Assembly (NCBI GenBank): GCA_964016885.1
Contig: OZ024742.1
Span: 69,006,001-69,070,000, forward strand
Direction of reading: 5' to 3'
Length of the DNA stretch: 64,000 nt
DNA from: Eledone cirrhosa
Taxonomy: Eukaryota
The translations under genes and the position numbers were made by a program. Below the pieces are notes generated by a model. That model saw nothing but the letters and a program-made list of their open reading frames with translations, was not told the DNA's origin and did not search any database. Each line of letters starts with the position of its first letter. Position 1 is the stretch's first letter. This document shows, piece after piece, positions 34,433-64,000 of this stretch.

Positions 34433-37400
34433 AGTTGTATTTATCTTGCTTTATGTTCATACGAGTTATCACCAAGTCACAACCAGTGACCTCAAGAGAC
34501 AACAAGGTCCGCCATGTTCAAGAAAGAACATACATACTCACACATGCATCTTTAGTGTTTAGACTTGTGATGTACTTATATTGACAGAATCTTCCTTAGT
34601 ATATGGGCAGTTCCCATTAGTACTATCTTTTGTATTTCTCCTATACGCGGGTTTCCTGGGATTTGCGATAAGTAATCATTAGACCCCTTAGGTATCATTC
34701 CCAGAGCGCCTACAACCACTGGTATTGTTTTAGTTCTCAATTTCCACATTTTTCCAATTTCTATCTCCAGGTCCTTATACTTGCTCAATTTTTCAAATGT
34801 TTTTATAGATACATTCTTGTCTATTGGAACAGACATATCAATTAGCAGGCATACCCTCTTTTGAAAGTCTTTCAATATTATATCAGTTCTGTTTGCATCT
34901 ATTTGTCGGTCTGTTTGGATGCTAAAGTTCCACAAGATTGAGATGTGATCTTTTTCAAGTATGGGAGGTGGCTGATGCTCCCACCAATTCTTTTGATGGG
35001 GCAGATCAAAATGCTTACACATTATCCAATGTATGTATTGTGCAGCTCTGTCATGCCTGTTTAGGTATTCGGTTGGAGCTATAGGACTGCACATTGAAAT
35101 TATATGGTCAATGGTCTCTGGTTGTTTTTTTGCATACACGGCATAATGGGCTGCACCCATTTTTTACTATGTTGGCTTGGTAATTTTTTGTTGGCAGACA
35201 CTGATCTTGTGCTGATATAATCAGTCCTTCAGTCTCCGATTTCAGTCCAGAGGATGCCAACCACTGATGGGTTAAAGTTTTGTCAACATCAGGATTGTTA
35301 GCTCGCTCTGGGTATTTTCCATACAGAGGCTTTTCTTGCCATTTCTTAGCCAGTTTCTGTAGCAGTTCTTTCTTTGCAGTTACTTTCACCTGCTTTGCTT
35401 TTTCTGTGTTTTCCATTTCAGCAGTAAATGGGACTTCTGAAATTTGTAGTCCATTACTGTATCTTTGTGCATCTTTTGTAATGGAATATGATCTTTTGAT
35501 GCTTTCGTGTTTCAAAACGAGTTTGATCATCCAATCATGTGATTCCCTTAGATATGTAGATAATCCAATTGTTGCAGTTTTCAACGCAATGTCTAACTGG
35601 ATTAACCCACGTCCTCCTTCTTTCCCAGGGAGATATATTCTATCTATATCTGCCTTAGGGTGATGCATTCTGTGCATGGTTAAGAATTTTCGAATTTTTG
35701 TATCGAGCCTACGGATCTCTGTGCTTGACCAGTTGATGACATTGTAACTGTAGGTTACTACTGGTATGGCAAGCGTGTTTATGGCATCGATCCTATTCCT
35801 TGCATTCAATTCCGTTCTTAAGATTGCTCTTACTCTGCGGTAACATTCCTTCCTTATCCTTTCCCTCATTGTCGAGTGCTTGATTCCGTCTCCTTCACAA
35901 ACACCTAGATATTAGTAAGTTTTTTCTTGATCAAGTTCTCTTATCACGTTCCCCCGATCAAGATTAATGTCTGAACTCTTCAGCAGCTTTCCTCTGGTGA
36001 ACGTTGCTTTGGCGCATTTATCTAGTCCAAACTCCATTTTAATGTCATCACTGAACTGCTCCACAGTGGATAATAGCCCTTGCAATTGTTCATCATTTCT
36101 TGCAAATAGTTTCAGGTCATCCATGTAGAACAGGTGATTAATGGTTTTGTCATAGACTTTATATCCATGTTTTGTTTCATTGAGTATTTTACTTAATGGT
36201 ATAAGTGCGATGCAGAATAAAAGCGGTGATAAAGAGTCACCCTGAAAAATTCCACAATTAATATTAACTTCTCCAGCTTCCAGTGATTTTGTTTCACTAT
36301 TCAAAAGGAGTGTCGTTTTCCATGTCTTCATACTGAATGACAAAAACCTCCTGACAACGGGGGATATTTTGAAAATCTCTAAACATTTTTCAATCCAACT
36401 GTGTGGCAAACTATCGAATGCTTTTTTATAATCTATCCAAGCAATCGATAGATTTTTGTGTCTATTATGACAATCTTCCAGTATCATTTTGTTAACCAGA
36501 AGCTGTTCCTTACAGCCATATGAGCCTCGTTTACACCCTTTCTGCTCAATGGGAAATAGGTCATTTGTTATCAGGTGGTCATATGTGTATTCAGTTAGGA
36601 CAGATGTTAAAATTTTATACATTGTGGTCAAGCAAGTTATCGGTCTGTAATTTTTGGGATTGTTTGTCTCATCATTCTTCGGAAGCAGGAATGTAATGCC
36701 GTTAACTAGCCATGATGGTATCTTTTCTGGCTCCTTAACTATTGCATTGTAAAGTTGGGCTAACAGCTCATGAGACTCTGTGAAGGCATTTATCCAAAAG
36801 TTTTGTATTTTGTCTTTTCCTGGGGATTTCCATTTGCTGGTTTTTCTTAGAGCCAAGCGCAACTGTTCAACTGTTATATTTTCCCATATTTGTTCCTCAA
36901 GGTGAGCTGTATCTTTCATTTGTCTGTCTATCCATGGGGCATGTATGTTATGAACTTTTTCTTCGGCCCAGATCTTTTCCCAGAATTCTTGCACTTCCTC
37001 CTTGGGTGGTATTGATTTAGCAGTTATTGTTGACTTACCAATTTTTCTGTAGAAGTTTCTTTGGTTGTTTTTGAACATATTATTGTCCTTATAGAATCTA
37101 GATCGTTTTTCAAAGCGCCTTATACGAGCAGCTTTGGCCGACACTTTTTGCTTGATTATTTCTATCAGCATGTCTATATCACATGTTGATTTTATACTGT
37201 ACTTTTTTTTCAATTTTCTAAGTTTAGTTTGTTTAACATGTTCACCTACTTTATAGTTTGTTAAAATTTCTATGTCAGATCGGAGAAGGTTTATTTGGCG
37301 ATTGATGTTCTCTTGCCAAGTAGATTTCTTGTGGGAATTCCTTTGTTTTTTCATCTTCACTCCACATAAGTGAGTGGTGACTTTAGCCGATGCATAATAG

Positions 37401-38176
37401 AGATGATTTAAATCAGTAATGTTTAGTTTGTTTGTGATGATAATGTTTTTGAGAATTATGTTAGTCTTGTGTATTATCTTTTGGTTCTGTTTGGAGTTCT
37501 GGATCTTAGGGAGGGTGTCTCGTTGCCCCATGTCAGATTCTTTCATTTTCATCCATTCGATCATAATTTCATCCTTCAAGTTGGCAAGTTCATTCTCATT
37601 CATTTCTTTATCATTTACGATCTCATTATTTTCATTTGGAGTTTCATCTTGAGCATGCACTCCCTCCACTTTTTCGATCCTTTCTTTAATTTGTTCTGTT
37701 GCCAGTGATTCCCCCCCAACCCTGGGATTCGAAGTGTTACAATTTACCTCGTTTTCACTGACACATGTTTCATTTTCCCTTCGCTGACTTTGTGCTAATA
37801 GCTTGATCTGATCAATTTCTATATCAGTTAGTAACTTTTTTCTTACAATATTTCTTCGTATATTGGCTAGTTTGTTACTGTCAATATAGCCTCTGTTTTC
37901 GGGATGTTTCTTTTTCCAGTTGATATATGTCTGTTCTGTATTCGATGTATTTGATGGGTAGTACATGGTAGTGTAGAAAGCCTCAAGGACTTCTTTATTA
38001 TCTTCCCTTGACCATTTTTCTCTCTTTTTCTTTGGATTTCTTGGTGGTGAGCATGGAGGGCCAACAGTAGGAGTATTCCGGTTATGGGCGGTCTCCAGCT
38101 CCGAAGTGATGGGAAGGTTTGAACCATTAGCTGATTTTTCGACCCCAGTCTGGTTCCTCTCTGAGGGACGCGGCCC

Positions 38177-38179
<3 letters not shown>
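34431..38179 (-). mobile_element. Near-full-length R4/Dong-like non-LTR retrotransposon (RT, CCHC, RLE)
   Basis: [52 protein letters not shown]. One nonsense codon (35912-35914) and one frameshift (T-run near 35125-35131). (AAT)n on both ends. Confidence 0.95.
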
Positions 38180-38257
<78 letters not shown>

Positions 38258-41200
38258 GGCGACCTACGTAGTAAATCGTATCATCGTGAGCTCCGCAAAG
38301 GTTTATTATTTCCGTTTGTTAAATATTGTCATTTATGGAAAATTTTATTGTTAACTGTTTATAAGGGCGGTGCCCCAGCATGGCCTCAGCCGGATGGCTG
38401 AAACAGGTAAAAGAGTAAAAGAGTAAGCGCACATACATTATTTTCCGAAAAGGACACCCAAAAAGATTGGGGCCTTGTGCCCAAAATTTAAACTTTTATT
38501 ATTATCAAAAAATTTCTTTGAAAAAAAATGGCTAATTCACCTCTGCACGAAGCAGCTGAAAGCCTTCCTCACAAATTAACACCTCACACCGACACCACCA
38601 TTGTAAATGTTACTACGTGTGCCAACACAAAAAAAATATAAGCACTAGCAATATTTTAAATTTGTCTCAGGCAGACATTCATTTCCCGCCATTACCAATG
38701 ACTGCAGGTGTTAAAGCCTCCACCACCACCACCACCGCGACAACAGAAACAAAAGAAGAAAAAAATAAATTAACTCGTGATGTCGAAATGAAATCAAGCA
38801 AAATGGACTCTTCCCCACCAAAGACGACTGACGTCACCACCACCACAACTGAAACTAAAATTAATATTAACGATAGCAACAACAACAACAATGACATTAT
38901 AACCCCCCCCCTCAGTTTCGCCAGAGTAGCAAAACAGTTCGAAGCATTTACGGTAACTCAGGAGGATTTAGAAAATTCCAAACAAATGGTAAAGAAAGAT
39001 GGGTACAGGGTCAGCCTCATCCCCCCCTAATAAAATGGAGCATCGGCGCCTATGCACCGTGTCGTATAGAACAATAAATGTAAAATCGCGCCGAGTGGAA
39101 CGGGCATCCGAGTCCCAAATCCAAAAAGCTTTGGGACATGTGTGGGCAAGAAAAACCCACATCAGACGTGGGCAAAAGTATGGAACCGTGGACGTGTTCT
39201 TTGAAACACCAGAGGAGGCTAGAGAACACTCCATGGCCCCATTAAGAAGTGACGACTTCACACTCGTCCCAAGCTATTGTGGCCAGAGACTCGTAAAGAT
39301 CAGGGTGACCCACGTTCCACCGGCCATCGAAATTCCCTGGCTAATAGCGGCTGTCCTCGCCGGCATCGAAGCCAACACGAAAATAATAGCAATAGCAAAA
39401 GAAAAGCAGGAGAACTTCTCTTCCTTCCCCCTCCAAAAACAAAATACAGAGGGAAACAAATAAATTAAGAAACAAAAAAGTTAGGACAGATATGCCACCA
39501 TCCACACCAGCATCACCAACCCCATCAACCCAAACACCAACACCATCACCATCATTAACCCCAACACCACCATCACCTACACCACAAAAGTCACCAAAAT
39601 GCGAAACAGAAACAAACCCACAACAAACGCAAACAAAACAAAACAACCAAAACGATACACACTACACAGCATTAAATTTGAACAACAAGCAATTATTACA
39701 CTACATCCAACACAAGACCAGCATCACAGAAAAAGACTACACAACAAACCCAAAATTCACACCACCTCCACACATACAAATCACTCGCATCACACAGAAA
39801 ACGTACATGACACTAAAACAAAAATTCCCCAAAGACATCGGAGACTTCCGACAAGCACTCTCCAGGAGGATTTATAAGGACATCCTTCCTGAGGAGGCCA
39901 CAAGCAGTGAAAAGGATTGAAAAACCGTCCTTCCCCTACGAGAAGTAAGGTAAGTGGTCTTTCCCATCTTTTCCACTCCTTTTCAACATGACCTCACTCA
40001 GAATAGGCAGCATAAATGCGCGTGGCTTGGGATCGTCATGGAAGCAGGGCCACCTGCTCAACGACCTCAGATCACTAAACATAGATGTAGTGGCCATCAG
40101 CGAGACCAGAATCTCCGAAGCACAGGCTTTCGCACCGATCTTCGGCGGCTACGATGTGTACGCATCTCCCAGCCGTCCGGGATCGGGGGGAGGAGTTGCT
40201 GTGCTTTTTCGGAGAGGTTTGGATCTTGCCATACGGGCCATCTTCCTGGACCCAGAAGGTAAGTTGGTGGTGCTGGACGTGACCAGCGGAGACGGGCAAG
40301 CTTTCAGGTTAGTGGCCGCCGTCTATGCCCCGACAGGAGCAGGGCGGCCTGATTTCTTCCGGCGTCTGGAGACCTTTCTTGGAACGTCCCGCTCTTTAGT
40401 GTTAGTGGGCGACTGGAACGGGATCTTAGATGCACGCTGGGATTGTGTGGGATTAGTGGATAGGCAAGGAGGGTGCAAGAGTCTCACCAACCTGCTCAGA
40501 CGTTTTGAACTGTCTGACAGGTACCGAATGGATTTCCCGAATGTACCAGTGTGGACTTGGATAAATCGCATAGGGTCATCCAGATCATATCTAGATAGAG
40601 TATTTTGTAGGGAAATAGATAGGTCTAGAATAGGCTGTCCACAATTCAAGATAGTCAGCTACACGGACCACAAATTCGTGATCTGTGTGCTTGACTTAGA
40701 TAGGCTTCATAGACGAGGACCCGGCTACTGGAAGCTAAACGCGTCCTTACCAGCGCGCAAGGCCTACAGAGACCGGATTAGCGAACTAGTTAAGCGGGCG
40801 TTGACGGGGGCCATCGTCAACAACAAGTGGTGGTTTGCTCTGAAAAGAGCAATTACAATAGAGTCCATTAGGTTTAGTAAGACTTTAGCAATAGAGAAAA
40901 ATAGAGCAGAGGGAGAATTAGTTAGAAAATTAGATGAGGCGCATAGCAAAGGCATCGCGACCGACGTACTTGCGGCGAAATTGGCCCTTGACCAATTCTT
41001 CAATGCAAAGCACGAAGGCTGCGTTGTCAGAGCTAGGGTGCGTGCTCTCAGACACGAGGGGACGAAAGACGTTCAATGGGCCCGAGTGGCGGAGGCGCGT
41101 CGTGGAAACAAAGCCACGATCCGGTCTTTGGTGGACCACGACGGGCGCATGCTACTCGATCCCGGGCAAATGTGTGAAGCTTTTCAGCGACACTTCGCTC

Positions 41201-43653
41201 AACTGTTCGGGGGCAGTGGCGGGCCGGATCGAGGGATGGACTTTAGTGTCTACCTCGACGGACTGCCGCGGCTTTCGGCCACTGAGGCGGAGTGTTGCAA
41301 AAAGCCGATAACAACCGCTGAAGTACGGGATGCAATGACTAGTTGCACAAGGTGTAAATCGCCTGGTTTGGATGGTCTGCCCTATGAACTTTACGTACAA
41401 ATGCCAAACTTGTTCGGAGGCCTCTTGGCGGACGTCTACTGCAACTGGCAACAGAACGGGAGAATTCCCAGCTCTGTGAGCCGGGGAGCGGTGGCGCTGC
41501 TGAGAAAGGATCCGAACAAGGGGGATAACATAGATAATTTTAGGCCCATAACTCTGCTAAACACAGAGTGCAAGATTTTGGCCAAGGTGCTAGCAAAGAG
41601 GTTGGCGCTTGTCGTTGGTGGTCTGGTGGGAGAGGCACAGACATGCGCCATTCCCGACAGATCCATCCAAGACAACCTCCACCTCATGCGATACATCGTA
41701 GAGAGGGTAGCTAGGGAACCTGGCACGGGTGGGTCTTTGATCAATTTAGATCAGTCGAAAGCCTTCGATAGGGTCGACCATCGTTACCTAGCGGCAGTCC
41801 TGAGGGCAGCTGGCTTTGGGCCCGTCTTCAGAGGCTGGATCGCTGCCATGCACAGCGACATCTGCTCTGTAGTGAGAGTGAACGGTCACCTTTCGGAACC
41901 GTTCAACATCATGCGCTCGGTCCGCCAAGGATGTCCCCTCTCGTCCCTATTGTACGTATTGACTCTCGAGCCATTACTGCACAAACTGGAGACGTTGAGG
42001 GGGGTCCCGCGCGAACTAGGATGCGGAAGATCCGTGTCAGCATATGCCGACGATGTCACCGTAGTGGTGTCGAACGCCAAACACATCGAGGCGATCGGCA
42101 CTACACTAAGAGAATACGAAGCGGTGACAGGAGCAATGATCAACCAGGAAAAGTCAGTGGGCCTGCAGCTCGGCACCTGGAGAGGCAGGTCCATGCCGTC
42201 CAACAGCGTCGTCGGGCGCTGGACGGACGGACCGGTTAAATTGCTAGGGGTCTGGTTCGGTCCAGACCTCCAGACGGACAAAAACTGGGACGAGGTGACG
42301 AGCAGGGTGGCTTCTCTCACCCAGAAATGGGCCGAGAGGAAGCTATCCCTGAAAGGTCGAGCGGAGGTGGCGAATGCGTACATCGCATCCGTCATCTACT
42401 ACCGCCTGACCGTCGTACCTTGTCCTAAGCCCCGCCTGACTGCGCTGGAGCGTTTGCTCTTTCGCTTCTTGTGGAAGGGACGCGCTCCGATGGTCAGGCG
42501 GTCCATCTGCTGTCAACACCCGCTACGTGGAGGGCTGGGCATGCCGTGGCTGATGATGCGCAGACACGCGCTCAGGCTACGACATCTCCACCTCTTCCTC
42601 GACGGTGATCAGGTGTGGTCGCCGTTTGCTAGACACGTTTTTCCCCAGCTTATCAGCTTGACGGAGCTGCAGTCCTGGGTCAAGCGAAGACCGAGAGGGA
42701 GCGCTTGGAGACTGGAATGTCTTCAGGCGCTCACAGCCCTCGACCAATCGGGCAATGTGATCGGTGGAAACTCCACCTTGGCGTTCTATAGGGGATTAGT
42801 GGAGGGGAAGAGCGACGACGTACTTAGAGAAACTCTAGGCGTCGACGAAAATCAACTAGCCAATCTCTTCGGAAGGACTTTCGGGCCGAGGCCTATGGAC
42901 AACTTCCAGAAATCCCTGGCCTGGCAGTGCTACCGAGGAGCTTTGCCAGTTCGGGATAAACTCTACAGGCATGGAGGTGCCGTCAGCCGGGCATGTCCGA
43001 GATGCGCGCAGGGCGACGAAACCGTCCTGCACGCACTCGTCCAGTGTCCGAGCATTGCTGACTTGTGGGTTTATGTCGAACACCTGCTGTCACGTGTAGG
43101 ACGGATCCAGCTATCAGCTGAGTCTATCGTGAGGATTGCCCCGCCCCCTTCCTTTAGCCGGGAAGGGCAGGAAGTTTTTATCTGTCTGGTGGCCATGGCG
43201 AAAGAGATAGTATGGTGGACACGTTTGAAAGGGCTAAAGACGAGCACTTACCTCTTCGGTGATGCCCTGATTAACTTTTTCAAATTCCATTTGAAAAGGA
43301 AAATCAGGGTAGAGAGGGAAGTGCTCTCTTCCCAGCATTTTGTTGAAAGATGGGTGAGAGAAGCAAGTATGGCCCGAATGAATGGGCCTTCTCTGAGTAT
43401 GTGTCTGTAAATTAAAGGTGGAAAACTGGGAGAGGGCACTTGCCCTGGTGGTCAGGGCCACTGTGGTCTTTTAATGGGCTTTCTCCACAAATGTCCCTCG
43501 GAAGTCTCCCCCCTATTGGGGAATTTTTCTTTGTTATTTTATTTCAACCTCTGTTTTTTTACACGCAGAAATGCCCATTTGTACCGTCCTGTATTGTCCT
43601 GTACTGTCCTTAATGTCTACTTTATGTAAACCCTTGTGGTTAATAAAGAAAAC
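38258..43653 (+). mobile_element. Apparently full-span Tx1/L1-clade LINE with disrupted ORF1 and intact ORF2
   Basis: 5' end shared with the copy at 45794; ORF1 pieces 38528-39920; ORF2; 3' UTR with AATAAA just before (ATT)n. Confidence 0.93.
39988..43410 (+). CDS. LINE ORF2: APE endonuclease, reverse transcriptase and C-terminal CCHC zinc finger (1140 aa, uninterrupted)
   Basis: SINARGL, ISET, VYAP, GDWN, YLDRVF, TDH, GYWKLN; SPGLDG, NFRPITLLN, KAFDRVDH, RQGCPLS, YADD; CPRC..ETVLHALVQC. Confidence 0.96.
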   Translation: MTSLRIGSINARGLGSSWKQGHLLNDLRSLNIDVVAISETRISEAQAFAPIFGGYDVYASPSRPGSGGGVAVLFRRGLDLAIRAIFLDPEGKLVVLDVTSGDGQAFRLVAAVYAPTGAGRPDFFRRLETFLGTSRSLVLVGDWNGILDARWDCVGLVDRQGGCKSLTNLLRRFELSDRYRMDFPNVPVWTWINRIGSSRSYLDRVFCREIDRSRIGCPQFKIVSYTDHKFVICVLDLDRLHRRGPGYWKLNASLPARKAYRDRISELVKRALTGAIVNNKWWFALKRAITIESIRFSKTLAIEKNRAEGELVRKLDEAHSKGIATDVLAAKLALDQFFNAKHEGCVVRARVRALRHEGTKDVQWARVAEARRGNKATIRSLVDHDGRMLLDPGQMCEAFQRHFAQLFGGSGGPDRGMDFSVYLDGLPRLSATEAECCKKPITTAEVRDAMTSCTRCKSPGLDGLPYELYVQMPNLFGGLLADVYCNWQQNGRIPSSVSRGAVALLRKDPNKGDNIDNFRPITLLNTECKILAKVLAKRLALVVGGLVGEAQTCAIPDRSIQDNLHLMRYIVERVAREPGTGGSLINLDQSKAFDRVDHRYLAAVLRAAGFGPVFRGWIAAMHSDICSVVRVNGHLSEPFNIMRSVRQGCPLSSLLYVLTLEPLLHKLETLRGVPRELGCGRSVSAYADDVTVVVSNAKHIEAIGTTLREYEAVTGAMINQEKSVGLQLGTWRGRSMPSNSVVGRWTDGPVKLLGVWFGPDLQTDKNWDEVTSRVASLTQKWAERKLSLKGRAEVANAYIASVIYYRLTVVPCPKPRLTALERLLFRFLWKGRAPMVRRSICCQHPLRGGLGMPWLMMRRHALRLRHLHLFLDGDQVWSPFARHVFPQLISLTELQSWVKRRPRGSAWRLECLQALTALDQSGNVIGGNSTLAFYRGLVEGKSDDVLRETLGVDENQLANLFGRTFGPRPMDNFQKSLAWQCYRGALPVRDKLYRHGGAVSRACPRCAQGDETVLHALVQCPSIADLWVYVEHLLSRVGRIQLSAESIVRIAPPPSFSREGQEVFICLVAMAKEIVWWTRLKGLKTSTYLFGDALINFFKFHLKRKIRVEREVLSSQHFVERWVREASMARMNGPSLSMCL

Positions 43654-43689: not shown

Positions 43690-45709
43690 CCTTGAATCTC
43701 AGTCATTGATGTTGGTTAACTGGAAAGTCCGTTGGATTGAATATCAAGCCACTACCTGCAGCCTCAGATATTCAGGACGTATCGGAGGGTTCTTGCCGTT
43801 CCAAGCAAGCATGCCTTTTGAAGCGTTCCAAAAAGCGTGAAGGGGCCGATTTTCTTTAACCATCCCTGGAAACCTTTGGAGATAGTCCCCAGTGCGCCTA
43901 TGATAATCGGGATCACTTTGACTTCATGGCAGTTCCAAATCCTTTTCACCTCCCACTTTAGGTCCTGGTATCGGTTAATTTTCTCCCTCTCCTTCTCTTG
44001 CACTCTCGTGTCGAACGGGCAGGCCACATCCACAATCAGGCACGATCTTTTTTCTTTGTCCACAACCACCAGGTCAGGTCTATTGTGTTCCAGTTTTTTG
44101 TCCGTCTGTATCCTAAAATCCCACAGCACCTTCACCTGACTGTTCTCCATCACCGCCTCTGGCCTATGCTCATACCATTTCTCAGAATGTGGTAGATTGT
44201 TTACTTTGCACAGGTGCCAGTGGATCACCCTGCCCATCACATCGTGTCTTCAGCCCTTATAGTGGGTCTGGGCTAGGTGTTTACACTCGGACACAATGTG
44301 AGCCACAGTCTCCTCTCTCTCTCCACAGATCCTGCACAGTGGGCTAGCCTCCTCCTTGTAGATATGGTGCTTCAACCACTTCGTTTTGAGGGCCTGCTCC
44401 TGCGCAGCCATTAGCATTCCTTCTGTAGCCTTTTTGAGGTCTCCTCTTCTCAACCAGTTCCATGTCTGTGGATCTCTAAATTCAGTTTTCTCAAAAAAGG
44501 TACTATGAAGGGATTTTCCCTTAAGGCTGCTCTTCCTCCTTGATGTTATTTCCTCCTTGGGTATCCCCTGGCCTACTGTCCCCTCCTTCAGTACAGCTCT
44601 GAGCATTGGCTCCTTACTATAGGTCACGTATTTGTATAGGTTGTTTTTCTCCATCTGAACACAGTCCTCTATGCTGATAAGACCTCTTCCACCCTCAGAT
44701 CTCCTTAGGTAGAGTATATCGACATCACTCCTCTTGTGGAACATGTTGTAGATAGTCAATAGCTTCCTAGTCTTCCTATCCATTTCTTTTTGTTCAGCAA
44801 CATTCCATCTCAGGATTCCCGCACTGTACCTAATAATAGACACAGCTCGGGAATTTACTGCGCTTATGGCATTTCTGCTGTTCAGATGTGACTTCAATAC
44901 GCTCCTTACTCTCCGAATGTATTCAGTTCTTAACAATTCCTTCATTTTTTTGTTCTTTATGCCATCAGCCTCCAGAACGCCCAAATACTTGTATCCTTCC
45001 TCAGAGTCAATTTCCTTTATCATCTCACCTGTTGGTATCTGGATCCCGTTACTTCTGCTCAACCTACCCCTCCTCATCACAATGACTCCACATTTACCAA
45101 TACCAAACTGCATACATATATCACTGCTGAAAATACGGACAGTGTCAACAAGCACATCCAACTCCTTCTCACTTTTCCCGAAGAGCTTAAGATCGTCCAT
45201 GAAGAGGAGGTGGTTGATGGTAAGCTCTCCCCTTCCCAACTTGTATCCTGCTCTCACTTTTCGCAGCATAATGGTCAAGGGCATCAGGGCAAGGACAAAC
45301 AACAGAGGGGACAGGCTATCTCCCTGGAAGATACCTCTCTTGATCTTCACGCTTCCCAAGGATACTCCAGTTGATGTCAACTCTGACTCCCAGGACCCCA
45401 TACTCCTGCCCAGCAACTGTCTGATGTTATCTGCCACCCTGAAGATCTCCAGGCTTTTGGTGATCCAGGAATGAGGCACCATGTCAAGTGCCTTTCTGTA
45501 GTCTATCCATCCCATGGCAAGATCAGTGTGTCTCCTCCTGCAATTCCCCATTACCATCTTATCAATAAGCAACTGGTCCTTTGTACCACGTGACTTCTTT
45601 CGGCATCCTTTCTGTTCGTCCGGCAACAAGTTGTTTGTGTGGAGGTGATGGTAGATTTCCTCAGACACAATGCTCGTCAACAGTTTCCACATTACGGGCA
45701 GACATGTGA

Positions 45710-45710
<1 letters not shown>
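43690..45710 (-). mobile_element. 5'-truncated R4/Dong-like LINE, second subfamily
   Basis: [11 protein letters not shown]...[42 protein letters not shown]; one TGA at 44250-44252 before RHD; (AAT)n on both ends. Confidence 0.94.
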
Positions 45711-45791
<81 letters not shown>

Positions 45792-45793
45792 TT

Positions 45794-48700
45794 TGGCGAC
45801 TAACTTAAGAAATCAAATTATCGTGAGCTCCACAAATGTTTGTTGTTTTCAATTGTTTCGAATTGCCAGTTATGGAAATTTTTTGTTGTTATAAGTTCAT
45901 ATATATTGCTTTCTGAAAAGGACACTCAATAATATTGGGTCCTTATTGGTTTGACAAAATTTGACACTTTTTTTTGTCAAACAAACAATTTAAAAAAATA
46001 TGGATGGCATTCTGCTACCCAAATGTGCTGACAGCAGCTCTAACATACCAACATCTACCATCACCACCATCGAAAGCCTTGATACAGGTGCTAAGACCGA
46101 AAATGTTTTCGCTACCAGCAGCAACAGCAATAGCAGTTACTTAGGTTTGCCACGTGCAGACGTAGATTTTCCCGCCCTTACCAATGTCTACAGGTGTTAA
46201 AGCCGCCATCTCCACCACAACAATGTCGAAGAGTACATACATCCCAGACCACTGATACCACCACCACCACCACCACCACCACCACGACCACCACCACCAC
46301 GACCACCACAACCACGACTACCACCACCACCACCACCACAACAACAACAACTGAAACTAAAAATAATAATAACAAAAATAAGAATAACAACAACACCAAC
46401 ACCAGCGCAAAACCAAATGTGTTTTTTTCTAAAGCGGCTAACAAAAACGAAACAATTGAGGTAAGTCAGGAAGAACTGAATGAGGCCAGGCGAATGGTGA
46501 AAATAAAACGGTTACAGTGTCAGCCTCACTCCTGCCATCAAATACCATGTAACATCGGCGCCTATGCACTGTATCTTTTCGCACGATCAATATAAAAACA
46601 CGCCGAAAGGAGCGGGCATCTGAGTCCCAGATCCAAAAAGCTTCGGAACATGTGTGGGCTCAAAAAACCCACATCAGACGTGGACAAAGATATGGAACCG
46701 TGGACGGTTCCAGTGACTCAACCATCAAAACCAGCAGCAGAAATGGCAGTAACAACTGTAGCAGCAACAGTAGCAAGACCAACACCACCACTGCCCACCG
46801 CGCTTGAAGTAGCACTAGCGCCTCCACCTTCCACCTCACCACAACCAACGCCAACGCCTGTGGAGGACATTCCCTTCCCCGACCTCTCACAACTGGAGAC
46901 GAATTGTGACGAGGAGGAGGGGTGGGAAACTGTATCTGGAAAAAAAAGAAAAAACTCTATTGCTTCGCCCTCCAAAAAGAAAATAAAGGGCGAATCAAAC
47001 AAACAAACTAGCAAAAAAGTTAAGAGAGCTCCACCAACATCCACACCAGCATCACCAGCCCCATCACCACAAACACCAACACCATCACTATCATTAACCC
47101 CAACACCACCATCACCAACACCACAAAAAAACACCAACAAGCGAAACAGAAACAAACCCACAACAAACGCAAACAAAACAAAGCAACCAAACCGATACCC
47201 ACTACACAGCATTAAACTTGAACAACAAGCAATTATTACACTACATCCAACACAACACAGAAAAAGACTATACAACACCCCAAAAATTCACACCACATAC
47301 AAATCACTCGTATCACCCAGAAAACGTACACAACACTAAAATTAAAATTCCCCAAGGACATCAGAGACTTCCGCCAAACACTTTCCAGGAGGATATATAA
47401 AGACATCCTTCCGGAGGGAGACATAAGCAGTCAGAAGGACGGAAAAACCATCCTTCCTCCACAAAAAACTGAGGTAAGTGGTCTTTTCCATCTTTTCCCA
47501 CTCCTTTTCAACATGACCTTACTCAGAATAGGCAGCATAAATGTGCGTGGCCTGGGGTCGTCATGGAAGCAGGGTGACCTGCTCAACGACCTCAGGCCAA
47601 TGAACATAGATGCGGTGGCCATCAGCGAGACCAGAATTTCCGAGGCACATGCCTTCGCACTCATCTTCGGCGTTTACGATGTGTACGCATCTCCAAGCCA
47701 GCCGGGATCGGGAAGCGGAGTCGCTGTGTTGTTTCGGAGAGGCCTGGATCTCGTGATACAGACCATCTTCCTGGACCCAGAAGGTAAGTCGGTAATACTG
47801 GACGTGACCAGCAGCAAAGACTATGCTTTTAGGCTAGTGCCTGTTTATACCCCGACATGGGCCTGATTTCTTCAGGCAACTGGAGACCTTCCCAGGAACG
47901 TTCCGCTCTTTAGTTTTAGTGGGCGATTGGAACGGGATGTTGGATGCACGCTGGGATTATGTGGGATTAGCAGTACCAACTGGATTTCCCGAATGTGTCA
48001 ATGTGGACATGGACAAACCGTATAGGTTTATCCAGATCGTATCTAGATAGAGTATTTTGTAAGGAAATAGATAGTTGTAGTATAGGTTGTCCACAATTCA
48101 AAATAGTCGACTTCACAGGCCACAAATTCCTGACCTGTGTGGTCGATTTAGATAGGTTTCATAGATAGGGACCCGGCTACTGGAAGCTAAACGCATCGTT
48201 GACAGCGTTCAATGCCTACAGAGACCGGATTAGCGAACTAGTTAAGCGGGCGTTGACGGGAGCAACCGTCAACAACAAATGGTGGTTCGCCCTGAAAAGG
48301 ACGATTAGAATGGAGTCCATTAGGTTTAGTAAGGAGTTAGAAATAGAGAAAAATAGAACAGAGGGAGAACTAGTTAGAACATTAGACGAGGCACTTCGTA
48401 AAGGCATCACGACTGATGTGCTTGCAGAAGCGAAATTGGCCCTCGACCGATTCTTCAACGCAAATCACGAAGGCTGCGTTGTCAGAGCTAGGGCGTGTGC
48501 TCTCAGAAATGAGGGGACGAAAGCCGTTTGATGGGCCCGAGTGGCGGAGGCGCGTCGTGGCAACAAAGCCACGATCCGGTCTTTGGAAGACCACGACGGG
48601 CGCATGTTACTCGAACCCGAGATAATGTGTGCGACTTTTCAGCGGCACTTCGCTCAGCTGTTCGGGGCAATGATGGGTCAGATCGCAGGATGGACTTTAT

Positions 48701-56357: not shown

Positions 56358-58204
56358 AAACCGAATGATTACCGGTTTCAGAGTTAAGAATAAAGTAAAT
56401 AAATTACAGAGGTAATTGAAATTAAATATATACATGCACGCAACCATATACGTACATATACAAGCATACGCGAAAACACCCGCAATGGGTATGTCAATAC
56501 AAGCACGTACACAAAAACACACACACGCACGCACATACAGACCCCCACGCAACGCCTGTACCCGCACGCATACGAACGTATACACCAAATACACATAAAA
56601 ATATATATAAAAAGAAAATATATATATATATGTGTGTGAGTGTGCGTGTATACATATAATTATATAAACGTATAGAAATATACGCACATAAATACGTATA
56701 AACGCGCTCATACACATGCCACCCGTAAATACACATATGTACGCAGACGTACGTCAACCAAAACACAAAGTACACATATACACACACCCTACATACGTAC
56801 GAACCCGCATACTCACAAAGACGCAAAACTCACGTATACGCATAACCATATGCACATGTACCAGTATATATAATATATACGCCATAACATATACAAGCAA
56901 ATATACGTAGAGAAAGTATACGTACCTTCACAAAACATACAGGTAAAATATACTTACCTATACAAATAAGTAATGGTATAAACATAACATACTTAGCTAC
57001 CACATCAAGACGTAAAATATCCGCGTATAGTTCGTATTATCCGTTAAGGTATAATGTGGGGCTGTAATACAGGAAAGTTGTGTGCAATTTATGTTTACAA
57101 GCCGAAATTGCCTCAGATTTTTGTTAAGAAGTGGTCTTTGGCGTAGAGTATTTCCAGGGCCTCAGCGGCGCAGAGGTTTCCAGGCCCTCAGCGGCGCAGA
57201 GGTCACATGGTCTTTTATTTCCGTTATACGATCTAACCTTAGCTAGGATCTCCCAGTGTAACGTAGATTCCAGATATAAGCTGAAAGTGACGTCATATTC
57301 CTTCTTAAAGGGTTAAGAAAAGAATGGGTATGCATGTAAAGACGCTGCTTGAATCTATTGGCGGTTAACCCTATGTAGGCCCTACGGGACGTGGGTGTTT
57401 CAAGTTTACATTTGTAGACAATGTTACTAGAGAGGCATTTCCCGGATAGGGGGCAGTCAACCCGATTCCTACAATTACAGTTAGTACTAACTACAGGGTT
57501 GCACGTGTTCCTACGGCTAGGTAATTTAGCTAAATTTGAAGCTGTGATGTTATGTGTCAGGTTAGGAGTCGTAGAGTAAGAAATTTTAATGGTATTTCTA
57601 TTAAAAATTTTACTATATTTATGTGCTGGGAGGAAATGCTTCATAAAAAGGAAGAGAAAGATCTTAGCTAATGGTGTGGCCACCTCCATATTATATGGTG
57701 GGTTATACCAACAAACACGACGGGATCTATTTCTTCTAAGTCTATTCTCGTACTCTGTATAAGCTACCTTATCGGCAAATCCACTCCGAGCAAGAGCTTC
57801 ATTGTAATATGTGGAATGGTCGTTGAAAATATGCTCGTTAGTAGATAGATGGGAAAGCCTCTACGAAACGTTTCTTACCAGGTTCTTGGTTATGCTGGCA
57901 GGATGGTTAGAATGCTTACTTATGTAATTAAGCGTATCATTCGGCTTTCCATACGGGTAGTGAAAGCCATTCGACAAATTGAGGGTAACGTCGAGGTAAT
58001 TAACGACCGAGAAGTTGGCCTCAACCTGTATGGAGAGGTTGAAGCCTTTAAAGAAGGCTGTGAGTTCTTTTCTGAACCTGTCGCAAGCACATGGGCCGCA
58101 CTTAGTCATGGTCAAAAGACCACACACACACTGGCACGTCCGTGATTTTAATGCTTAAGCAATGGCATTACTCGAAATCGAGTTTCAGGCATCATGTATG
58201 TATG

Positions 58205-58790
58205 ATTGTTCTTCAAGTTTTATAATTTATAAATTCTTACTAATAGAGTGAGAGAGAGAGAGAGATCTGGGGGCGGGAGGAGAGTGAGAGAGAGAGAGTC
58301 GGTTTCTAACATAGATACAAGACTCTCGCTTTGGAATTTAAACATATCCGCATGCATGCGTGTGCAGGTATGGATCTTAATGTATGTGTGGGTATGTATG
58401 TTTTGAGTTATATGTGCGCATGTGTATATGCTTTGTATCTGTACATGTGTACATGCAGTTATAACATGCAGAATTTTTGGAATATTTTACATATTTTTAC
58501 TGTTCCATTAATGGATTATACTTGTAATTTCCTAACTAGTTGTGTTCTTTCTGTTTCTGTGAAGCCTAGCTTCTCAAGATTTGTACTGAGGCAGTTAGTA
58601 ACGTATCCCAGTGCCCCAATAACCACATGTATAAATCTGAAGGTATAGTCAGGGTGGAGTATCTGTAGATTACTCATTAGTTGTGCATAGATATTCTCCT
58701 TTCCGCTAATCTTTAATATTATATTGGCATCTGCTGGGCAGCTAACTTCCACTACTGTGCATGCCTTCTTTTCCCTGTCCCAGAACTAAT
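58205..58790 (-). mobile_element. R4-like LINE 3' end (copy A)
   Basis: VEVSCPADANI..KENIY..L..FIHVVIGALG; 3' UTR matches 60435-60660. Confidence 0.82.
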
Positions 58791-59280
58791 GAGGAATCTG
58801 CAGATACTCCACCTTGTGTACCGGGTTATTAAACTCCCGTGAGTCTTAATTAGCGTAAAACATGTGAAAATACTCTAAACGGAAATTAAAAGCCTCCTCC
58901 ATAATTCTTCATAAGATATTCGCTAGCTGCAATGTATCACCCTGGCTTGGGAACATTTACAGAGTAAAGGGAATAAGAATATGTGGCTTTCATGACTTTC
59001 CAAATATATTTAGACAGAATAAAATGAATTGAATCTTGCTATAAGATAGAATTGAAAATGTATCACATACTCTGGTTGTTAATTAATCTTTTCATCTATG
59101 AATCTCTGATCAATAATGGATTATTTCGATTATTTTGCGAGTGTGCGTGTGTGTTGGTATGAATGTGTGCGCGCGTGTGTGTATGCGCGTGTATGTTTGT
59201 ATGTGTGTGTTTGGGTGTGGTTAACTTTTGTAATTGAATAGCTCTTTATATTGATATTTAATATAAATGCACATCTAAAT

Positions 59281-59388
59281 ATGAATAATGTCAAGTCCCC
59301 AGAGTGTAAAGTGTTTTTTTATTTTATCTCCAAGGCAACTGTTGAGTCTGTTATGTATCATACAAATATTATATCATATATTTCGCCG
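59281..59388 (+). CDS. Putative first coding segment of the GRL gene (MNNVKSPECKVFFYFISKATVESVMYHTNIISYISP)
   Basis: ATG-initiated and in the same frame as 59557-60360; separated from it only by a 168-bp SINE with GT...AG ends. Confidence 0.5.
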
Positions 59389-59554
59389 GTGAATTGGCAG
59401 TATCGGTAGAGGGTTGGACGCCATGCTTTCTAGCATAGTTACGTCCCTTTACGGTTTGAGTTCAAATCCCGCCGAGGTTAACTTTGCCTTCCATCCTTAC
59501 GGGGTCGATAAAATAAAGTACCAGTAATGTAGTGGGTAATTGCTGGCCTTGTGC
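59387..59554 (+). mobile_element. tRNA-derived SINE inside the GRL gene
   Basis: A-box TGGCAGTATCGG, B-box GAGTTCAAATCC; body like the copies at 743-938, 7207-7393 and 63646-63793; lacks the usual 3' tail. Confidence 0.9.
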
Positions 59555-59556
59555 AG

Positions 59557-60360
59557 AATTTATTAAAACTTTTTAACGGTATTGTTTTACTGTATTTAGT
59601 TTGGAATATGTGGCAGTTATCTACGATGCTAGACAAAGCAGTCAGCAGGGGGGAATTAATCAACTTCATAACCTCACTCATTTTCTATCTCATGCACACT
59701 TTTGAGAGTATTATAAAGGTCATGTTCAACATCATGTTTGGAAGAGGATTAATAGAAACATTTATGGCTTATGTTTTTGTGGACCAAGATTATTTCAGGA
59801 AATTGAAAGTGGTCGTTAAAATTTCGTTAGTGGTTTTAGGTTCCGTATTAATCCTGTCTCTAATATTTAACATAATACTAATTAAAATTCAATTAGAAAC
59901 AACTAATTTGAACACAACAATAGCATTTCCAATATGGAGGAACGAAGCTCTAGATATTCTAAACTTCAAGCTATTAAACTATTTTATCGTTTTGGTACAA
60001 CTCATCAACAAAATATTTCTTTATATCTTCCTGAAAATAATACGTTCAGAGTTGTATGTACTCACCCAGCAACTGAAGCTGCTAGATGTCAAACAACAAG
60101 CAATTGACATTAATAGCAAACTGATTCATCTACAGAAGAAATACGAAGTGATAATGGAGCTACTGGATCAAGTCAACAAACATTTCTCCAGCTATTTAGT
60201 CACTCTGTTTTTATTTACACTCAGCAGTATCAGTATACTGATATACGTCATATTTCAGGATGTGGACTTTTATGAAAAATATATTGTATCCTCATTTGCA
60301 ATAATTTCGACAACCTTTACTATGTTTGTTCTCTACAATGGTATCTCTATGCAATTTGCT
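59557..60360 (+). CDS. Gustatory-receptor-like (GRL/7TM chemoreceptor) main exon, about TM1-TM6
   Basis: 268 open codons in AT-rich DNA with about six hydrophobic helices. LIHLQKKYEVIMELLDQVNKHFSSYLV matches the GR pre-TM5 loop pattern. Ends at a phase-0 donor GCT|GTATGT after TM6. TM7 exon(s) not found in the window. Confidence 0.75.
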
Positions 60361-60434
60361 GTATGTTGATTTATTTTATATGTATTTATGCATGTATGTA
60401 TGTATGTATGTATGTATGTATGTATGTATGTATG

Positions 60435-61220
60435 TTCTTCTGGTTTTATAATTTCACAAAGTTTTACCAATAGAGAGAGAGATTCGGTTTCTAACATAGA
60501 CACAAGACTCTCTCATTGGAATTTACACAACATCAACTAGGTAGGTATGTATGTATGCATGCATGTGTAGATATGGATGTTATTGTATGTGTGGATGTGG
60601 ATGTTTTGAGTTGTATGTGTGCATGTGTATATGCTTTGTATCTGTACATGTGTATATGCAGTTATTAGATGCAAAATGTTTGGAATGTTTTACATATTTT
60701 TACTGTTCCGTTAATGGATTGTACTTGTAGTTTCCTAACTAGTTGTGTTCTTTCTGTTCCTGTGAAGCCTAGCTTCTCAAGATTTGTATTGAGGCAGTTA
60801 CTAACATATCTCAGTGCCCCAATAATCACAGGCATAAATCTGAAGGTGTAATCAGGGTGGAGTATCTGCAGATTACTCATCAGTTCTGCATAAATATTCT
60901 CCTTTTCATTAATTTTTGATATTATATTGGCACCTGATGGGCAGCTAACTTCCACTACTGTGGATGCCTTCTTTTCGCTTCCCTATATCATTATATCTGG
61001 TCTGTTATGCCTGAATTTTATTGGGGTTTTTACTGGAACATTACACCAGTACTGTTACATATTATGTATATGTATGTCTTCCACATTGCTGTAGCTTTTA
61101 ACGTGTTTTTTATCGGGGCTATATTTTCTATGGAGTATTTTCGCCACCACATCGTGCCTCATAGGTAGATAGTACCACGATGACATCTTTGGACAGCTGC
61201 TTATGAAATGGGTGACATCC
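60435..61220 (-). mobile_element. R4-like LINE 3' end (copy B) with (TACA)n tail, in the GRL intron
   Basis: RHD, HNRPDI, EVSCP, KENIY, PVIIGAL, KICKTF. Confidence 0.85.
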
Positions 61221-61249
61221 TAGCTGTAAGTATGTACGGATGTATGTAT

Positions 61250-63793: not shown

Positions 63794-64000
63794 ATATATG
63801 GGATTATTTGTCGTGAAATGCTACCAGTAGTATTGTCACATTAGTTCGGTATTTGACATTGCAAGTAGTGTCAACATCTCCACCACCACAACTGGGTCGG
63901 CTTCTGTTAAGTATTGGTGTACTCATATCATATAGTTGTTGTTGAACCTCATTTAACAACATGTTAAATTCATACTTTAGCACATTATGCAGTAAATTCC

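Follow-up and report, generated by a model that had tools for sequence, protein, structure and literature searches.

A Displaced Exon Copy and the Putative Shared-Tail Gustatory-Receptor-Like Arrays of the Cephalopod Eledone cirrhosa

Introduction

A long hydrophobic open reading frame (ORF) near the end of a 64,000-nucleotide stretch of the Eledone cirrhosa genome (G000:C3:69006001-69070000 in working coordinates; hereafter, the window) had been interpreted, from the sequence alone, as a divergent gustatory-receptor-like (GRL) gene whose last transmembrane (TM) helix would be encoded beyond the window. This raises the question of what the ORF is: a working receptor gene, part of one, or a relic. 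Passages of a sensory-receptor review attribute contact and distance chemosensing in cephalopods to Cys-loop chemotactile receptors (CRs), IRs, and GPCRs, and cephalopod GRLs are absent from those passages (PMC11526382). GRLs are known from molluscs and annelids, as described in parts of PMC7746228, PMC5850775, and PMC11730519. Our literature searches turned up no report of cephalopod GRLs or of a shared-tail gene design in a mollusc; Robertson 2015, Saina 2015, or supplements could list cephalopod GRLs. The main text of a survey of the 7TMIC superfamily (10.1101/2023.08.30.555482) does not mention octopus, cephalopod, or mollusc, and PMC11682238 offered nothing further on cephalopod GRLs.

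Results

Extent of the Window ORF

The window contains a 278-codon hydrophobic frame at 59533-60369 (+), closed by TGA at 60367-60369. The initial annotation had described a hydrophobic ORF running from 59281; the long hydrophobic frame is there, but its start is not, because five stops lie between the same-frame ATG at 59281 and 59533, where the open frame begins. Other features read from the sequence held up. The predicted model of the window ORF has six long helices and the sequence has five to six hydrophobic segments, in agreement with the six or so TM helices that had been counted, and the GR-type loop motif before TM5 is present as the stretch LQKKYEVIMELLDQVNKHFS. The phase-0 donor placed after TM6 was recovered as GCT/GTATGT at 60360/60361, and in 13 of the 13 C3 exon copies examined it falls at the same codon. 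Since homology stops at this same GT donor in every copy, after GISxQF(A/Y/V/S), we consider the donor at 60361 to be real; it also occupies the same protein position as the joint between variable first exons (heads) and shared last exons (tails) in annotated Octopus isoforms.

Family homology starts only at 59553 (Table 1). The window copy has no start codon, no cytoplasmic N-terminal tail, and no S0 helix, a repeat having taken their place, and is 90-98 codons short compared with its closest paralogues; no upstream N-terminal exon was found in the 119 kb 5' of it. When the 3.0-Gb genome was searched with the window ORF, 16 matches, far beyond chance, were obtained at E<=5e-13, all of them at 69.07-69.88 Mb on C3, and the closest named relatives are Octopus proteins of ~50% identity. 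The TM7 exon predicted beyond position 64000 did not materialize. The TM7 motif is absent from the window itself, a coverage scan of the downstream DNA for shared exons returned repeats only, and no such exon lies on the + strand for 639 kb, the nearest same-strand first tail exon (c1) being 639,269 nt away, at G000:C3:69705629 in tail B. A TM7 exon right after the window was accordingly rejected as a candidate, with none detected in searches that covered from 20 kb up to 640 kb of downstream DNA. The distance to the same-strand tail was 2.7-118 kb for the 12 heads of the cluster that were measured, versus 639 kb for the window copy.

Table 1. Features in and around the window copy (positions within the window)
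Feature	Position	Strand	Basis or remark
Variable first exon remnant (helices S1-S6), frame open	59553-60360	+	Paralogue comparison; predicted model
Phase-0 splice donor GTATGT	60361-60366	+	Read-through reaches TGA 60367-60369
First seven ORF codons, repeat-derived rather than receptor	59533-59552	+	Homology comparison
First in-frame ATG, end of helix S1, 251 codons before donor	59608-59610	+	Sequence
Junction AG, weak possible phase-0 acceptor	59555-59556	+	Sequence
Short high-copy repeat abutting the truncated exon	59388-59554	+	108 matches in 1 Mb; summed contig depth above 10^6
Piece from spacer ~2.6 kb upstream of heads B1/A1 (G000:C3:69696267-69696992)	58813-59554	+	Homology
31-nt linker, inverted copy of the window exon's downstream intron	58782-58812	+	2 mismatches to 60857-60887 and to A2 intron
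Intron remnant copied along with the exon	60361-61221	+	Homology to B2 intron stops at 61221
High-copy repeat fragment	58287-58782	-	85-86% like copy in GRL introns (60420-60990)
Dispersed repeat outside the cluster remnant	56620-58122	-	Copies on many contigs, 86-91%; 40 of 5024 candidates scored

Family and Fold

The divergent GRL call was borne out by fold, profile, and intron pattern, by which the family almost certainly belongs to the GR/OR/GRL superfamily (7TMIC), and no GPCR or transporter competes. An AlphaFold model of a full-length O. bimaculoides relative (P0003; pLDDT 76.9) matched eight insect OR/Orco/GR chains at Z 22.6-27.4 (rmsd 3.7-4.1 A over 311-367 residues), and the next best of 48,161 chains reached only Z 8.5. 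In Foldseek, 17 of 17 matches at E<=0.001 fell within the OR/Orco/GR block, with the best non-OR/GR row at E=0.12. For the window ORF itself, the model (pLDDT 81.1) recovered the same eight chains over S1-S6 at Z 13.3-17.2, followed by a next value of 7.4; the resemblance to Orco/GR structures that had been anticipated was thus seen in both models, and the best GPCR rows stayed at Z <=6.9, against 13-17 for OR/GR. The full-length structural match of the predicted model to Orco/GR would imply an intracellular N-terminus. Compared with the insect OR/Orco/GR channels (PDB 8z9a, 8v3d, 7lic, 8jme, 8jm9, 8vc1, 6c70), the cephalopod proteins share the S0-S7 fold, the split S7a/S7b, and TM7 motif positions 1-3, but identity is 8-15% and the gate Phe is replaced by Thr in SYGVIVFQT (C3) and TYILVVIQT (C13).

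A family profile run against PDB sequences gave nine matches, all nine of them OR/Orco/GR. Membership in Pfam 7tm_7 was supported for full-length octopus relatives but not for the window ORF alone, which scored E=0.43 and 10.3 bits against the curated cut-off of 26.6 bits. That cut-off was passed by six of the ten proteins tested (P0003 at 48.5, P0004 at 57.7); a C13 head reached 34.5 bits, head B1 fell below with 26.2, and the six-frame translation of C3 contained matches above it. The TM7 motif of animal GRLs, (T/S)Yhhhhh(Q/K/E)(F/L/M), is termed diagnostic, not definitive, in a passage of PMC7746228, and the two tail motifs agree with it at three of four positions, the last being Thr. The motif ends in QT, not QF, in all cephalopod tails seen (C3, C13, C29, Sepia, Octopus models), and having a polar side chain at the hydrophobic gate could alter gating.

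The C-terminal phase-0 introns expected of this superfamily are also present: the head/c1, c1/c2, and c2/c3 junctions are phase 0 in tails A, B, and C and on C13, their positional homology with insect introns being judged from protein alignment only. As for the suggestion that automated annotation could easily miss the family, RefSeq labels these proteins 'uncharacterized' and the C13 exon is without a relative among 3326 candidates, but some UniRef entries do carry the names 'Odorant receptor' or 'Gustatory receptor'.

The C3 Cluster

We mapped 1.01 Mb of C3 (68.946-69.958 Mb), a region with no missing stretches and three 200-N assembly gaps. It holds three tails (A, B, C) of three exons each, with canonical phase-0 sites in every one of the nine tail exons: c1 has 24 codons, c2 has 29, and c3 carries SYGVIVFQT and the stop. 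Genome-wide protein and DNA searches found no further tail sets of this family. The heads are ~1-kb exons encoding S0-S6, all ending at one phase-0 donor; tail A (-) is faced by heads A1-A5, tail B (+) by B0, B5, B3, B2, and B1, and tail C (-) by C1, C2, and a disrupted third head. Nine heads have at least 309 open codons before the donor, four are broken exons, and two are fragments. A2 and B2 have in common a frameshift (1-nt deletion) and a stop, and B0 and the third C head are also broken. Arms A and B are inverted and 95-99% alike, and may be partly allelic; B and C have an inverted tail region in common. Two nested inverted duplications can be recognized at G000:C3:69.457-69.745 Mb, with the A/B axis at ~69.58 Mb and the B/C axis at ~69.73 Mb, and the assembly gaps at 69.513 and 69.637 Mb sit at roughly mirrored places of these duplications. 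Tandem repeats of a 466-bp unit, nearly perfect and with an inverted copy next to them, were observed at G000:C3:69,275,235-69,285,406.

The C13 Array

A genome search with 7tm_7 (111 of 215 candidates scored), together with a search using O. sinensis LOC118764606, exposed a second GRL array at G000:C13:13,020,122-13,305,330. It comprises 12 intact heads of 327-330 codons from Met to donor and four partial or broken ones, all on the + strand, and behind these 16 heads lies a tail of one c1, one c2, and one strong c3 with TYILVVIQT; the c1 is a weak match (E=0.37, best of 902 candidates). No database relative of a C13 head was found among 3326 candidates. The Gr39a/Gr28b-type layout, in which several long heads precede one three-exon tail, is therefore present on both C3 and C13. 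In a quick tree of 38 rows, covering a subset of heads and supported by SH-aLRT values with no bootstrap, the C13/C29 lineage (99) and the C3 lineage are separate, the latter clustering with Octopus models (99) and, at weaker support, with Sepia (93); the C3 heads of the E. cirrhosa genome form their own expansion (99). Two separate GRL lineages thus appear, from gene layout, to use the head/shared-tail design. A divergent GRL gene with its own c2 was seen just upstream of the C13 array (C13:12,994,193-13,005,400), and a 49-kb contig carries one gene related to LOC118764606 as well as two near-identical heads before one detected c2 (C29:12,000-44,500).

Joining of Heads to Tails

The evidence for joining comes from automatic gene models of three other cephalopods. 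In O. bimaculoides, RefSeq models X1-X3 of LOC106874590 differ in their S0-S6 heads and share one tail of 93 residues; in O. sinensis, models X1-X5 of LOC118764548 place different heads on an identical tail; and in Sepia pharaonis, CAE1281263 and CAE1281266, from one contig, are identical in their last 87 residues and divergent in their heads. These loci are of the same GRL lineage as the C3 cluster, and it is very probable that the large C3 and C13 heads are likewise spliced onto shared three-exon tails. The Octopus and Sepia loci are annotated as uncharacterized, with 3-5 models each, and the window copy is in contrast truncated and displaced. In one model, P0008 (O. sinensis LOC118764548 X2), the head type switches in mid-S4, so that the protein looks chimeric between two heads; a cryptic splice, a recombinant exon, or an annotation error is possible.

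Origin of the Window Copy

Comparison with the cluster identifies the window ORF as a stray copy of one cluster exon, ~1.4% diverged and missing its own N-terminal part, with the apparent source cluster 0.4-0.6 Mb away. It differs from A2 at 11 positions in 805 nt and from B2 at 14, and it does not carry the frameshift of A2 and B2. Among the variants private to it are those at 59615, 59908, and 59918. On the window-copy side, before the frameshift site, five changes alter an amino acid and one is silent. An open frame and donor in a copy whose counterparts A2 and B2 are broken would fit the survival of a functional copy; the window copy is, however, too young to test, and its open frame is consequently no evidence of function. 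We regard it as dead, a pseudo-exon, with considerable confidence.

Sequence comparison shows the copy to be a three-piece patchwork of cluster DNA: a spacer piece, an inverted linker, and an exon with part of its intron (Table 1). The first 338 nt of the spacer piece are 99% identical to B and A and have no counterpart outside the cluster, and the repeat and the exon meet at a 2-nt GC microhomology. The repeat at the truncated end is inferred to be SINE-like, and it had no match in Rfam. The repeat at 58287-58782, which we take to be the 3' end of a LINE (a Pfam search gave no match), is the likely insertion site of the patch. Two template changes and an inverted linker fit template-switching repair, as that process is generally understood, and the copy would have arisen in this way. 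The 55.8-58.1 kb region was considered as an older cluster remnant and rejected, since it proved to be a dispersed repeat in which a search for degraded exons gave none; its frame at 56620-58122 (-) has a GIY-YIG-like stretch and is presumably Penelope-like, with no match in a Pfam search. Long retroelement-like ORFs of 1153, 783, and 520 codons were also noted in the window at 39949-43407 (+), 35111-38263 (-), and 44253-45812 (-), respectively, the first being a relative of the element that disrupts the third C head.

Selection on Heads

Values of dN/dS come from pairwise counting and from one-ratio codon models, applied to 12 of the 16 C13 pieces and nine of the 16 C3 pieces, broken and partial ones being left out, and the intervals given below take no account of shared ancestry or gene conversion. 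On C13, the 12 intact heads had a pairwise dN/dS of 2.02 (column bootstrap 1.37-3.36; maximum likelihood (ML) 2.0-2.1). With outward- and inward-facing compartments assigned by alignment to the P0003 model, outward-facing C13 codons had a pairwise value of 2.36 (1.33-4.59) versus 1.17 (0.67-2.53) for inward ones, the intervals overlapping, and the ML values were 3.15 and 0.8. The nine C3 heads gave 0.87 overall, 1.03 outward, and 0.57 inward (0.41-0.76).

Discussion

We put the probability at about three in four that the window holds a displaced, 5'-truncated, likely non-functional exon copy derived from a shared-tail GRL cluster, and that this cluster makes predicted tetrameric ligand-gated cation channels. 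In the mechanism that we propose, which is that of Drosophila Gr28b, where each head has a promoter of its own (a passage of PMC12635824), transcription would begin at a separate promoter for every head, and the transcript would be spliced to the next tail on the same strand. In insect GRs, the same source describes, in part, a pocket in S1-S6, an anchor made of S7a and cytosolic parts of S4-S6, and a pore lined by S7b. Here the exon border, at residue 374, lies close to where S6 ends (a helix at 344-387 in the model), and therefore the pocket, formed by S2-S6, is expected to be encoded by the heads, whereas the tails would contribute S7b as the pore and, with S7a, part of the anchor. With a head pocket joined to a tail pore, ligand specificity would vary on a constant gate. 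About 21 isoforms (9 + 12) would be made from four tails, and their ligands would be external chemicals.

Other origins of the window copy must be weighed. It might be the live, most distal head of cluster B, using a new promoter or the junction AG and being spliced across 639 kb to tail B, or being read through as a pore-less modulator of other subunits with 5-6 helices. The copy does lie on the strand of tail B, its junction AG is in phase 0, and its frame and donor are intact where A2 and B2 are broken; but we think a live head improbable, considering that no start codon precedes the end of S1, that the S0 helix is lacking, that an N-terminal exon was not found in the 119 kb upstream, that five same-strand heads and the opposite-strand cluster A intervene before the tail, and that its flanks are a patchwork. 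Still less credit is given to an assembly artefact, that is, a chimeric join at repeats. All joins of the window copy are in or beside repeats, and among the Logan contigs listed (three sets, one sample), none bridged the 59553 junction or had window-copy variants, only A2/B2-type sequence being seen, an absence that is weak because contigs drop or collapse variants. A mis-join would not, however, create the copy's own substitutions or remove the A2/B2 frameshift, the inverted linker differs by at least 2 nt from every source copy, and the nearest assembly gap is more than 230 kb away. A zero-difference contig over 61192-61440 moreover crosses the right-hand end, with 30 letters to the left, one below the bridging rule. 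The displaced, truncated copy from a shared-tail cluster hence remains our preferred reading.

Alternatives also exist for the heads and for what the channels do. The heads could be separate genes or mostly decaying duplicates, functional only when beside each tail, and the broken pieces (seven of 16 on C3, the window copy counted, and four of 16 on C13) and a dN/dS near 1 among recent C3 duplicates point in that direction; yet distal heads retain frames of at least 300 codons and the donor across dS 0.4-0.9, inward-facing C3 codons remain at 0.57 as given above, and tails are common to several heads in the relatives' gene models, which makes decay or separateness hard to credit. A chemosensory role is what we consider probable. 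The isoforms might instead be GRL channels with a developmental, thermal, light-related, or internal sensing role, given that the cnidarian NvecGrl1 works in body patterning and not in sensing (a passage of PMC5850775), and that DmGr28b isoforms sense heat and perhaps light (part of PMC12635824). Such a role is unlikely, though a real contender, since head birth-and-death and the outer-face amino-acid excess fit tuning to varied external ligands.

The design itself has known counterparts. Gr39a has tandem long first exons before shared short exons (PMC2204066), and a variable-exon design is described for cockroach GRs and ORs, including Gr60a-m (passages of PMC6175461). Drosophila Gr39a and Gr28b and cockroach Gr60a-m are like the present loci in having tandem long first exons with three short shared phase-0 exons, as well as head gain, loss, and pseudogenisation. 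The present case differs in being from a mollusc and known from sequence, in involving two GRL lineages, and in having arrays of 0.1-0.3 Mb with inverted duplicates of whole units. Selection differs too, Gr39a being under purifying selection overall, according to part of PMC2204066, in contrast to a dN/dS of ~2 for the C13 array. Occurrence of the Gr39a/Gr28b design, known in insects, would on this gene layout be new in a mollusc, and suggests that the design is a consequence of three ancestral phase-0 introns and can arise again in any animal. The CRs are likewise lineage-expanded, fast-evolving ion-channel receptors (26 in O. bimaculoides), but they are Cys-loop pentamers of an unrelated fold whose sensory function has been shown (both from passages of PMC11526382), whereas the sensory role of the GRLs described here is predicted.

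The window copy itself carries little weight beyond being a false positive in gene counts. With many receptors under one locus name, gene counts in turn understate the family several-fold. The shared tail makes these arrays easy to test: a c2/c3 probe would mark every expressing cell, one knockout would take out a whole array, and heads could be swapped on a fixed pore. It seems to us an even bet that coleoids possess, in addition to the chemotactile receptors, a second system of ionotropic chemoreceptors. In it, two GRL lineages, independently of insects, would have come to produce ~20 receptors by choosing among promoters, and with them among exchangeable ligand-binding exons, while the pore module, with its Thr-for-Phe gate, would be shared. 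One of the arrays would be under positive selection, and the window copy would then be a record of the rearrangements that give rise to heads and eliminate them.
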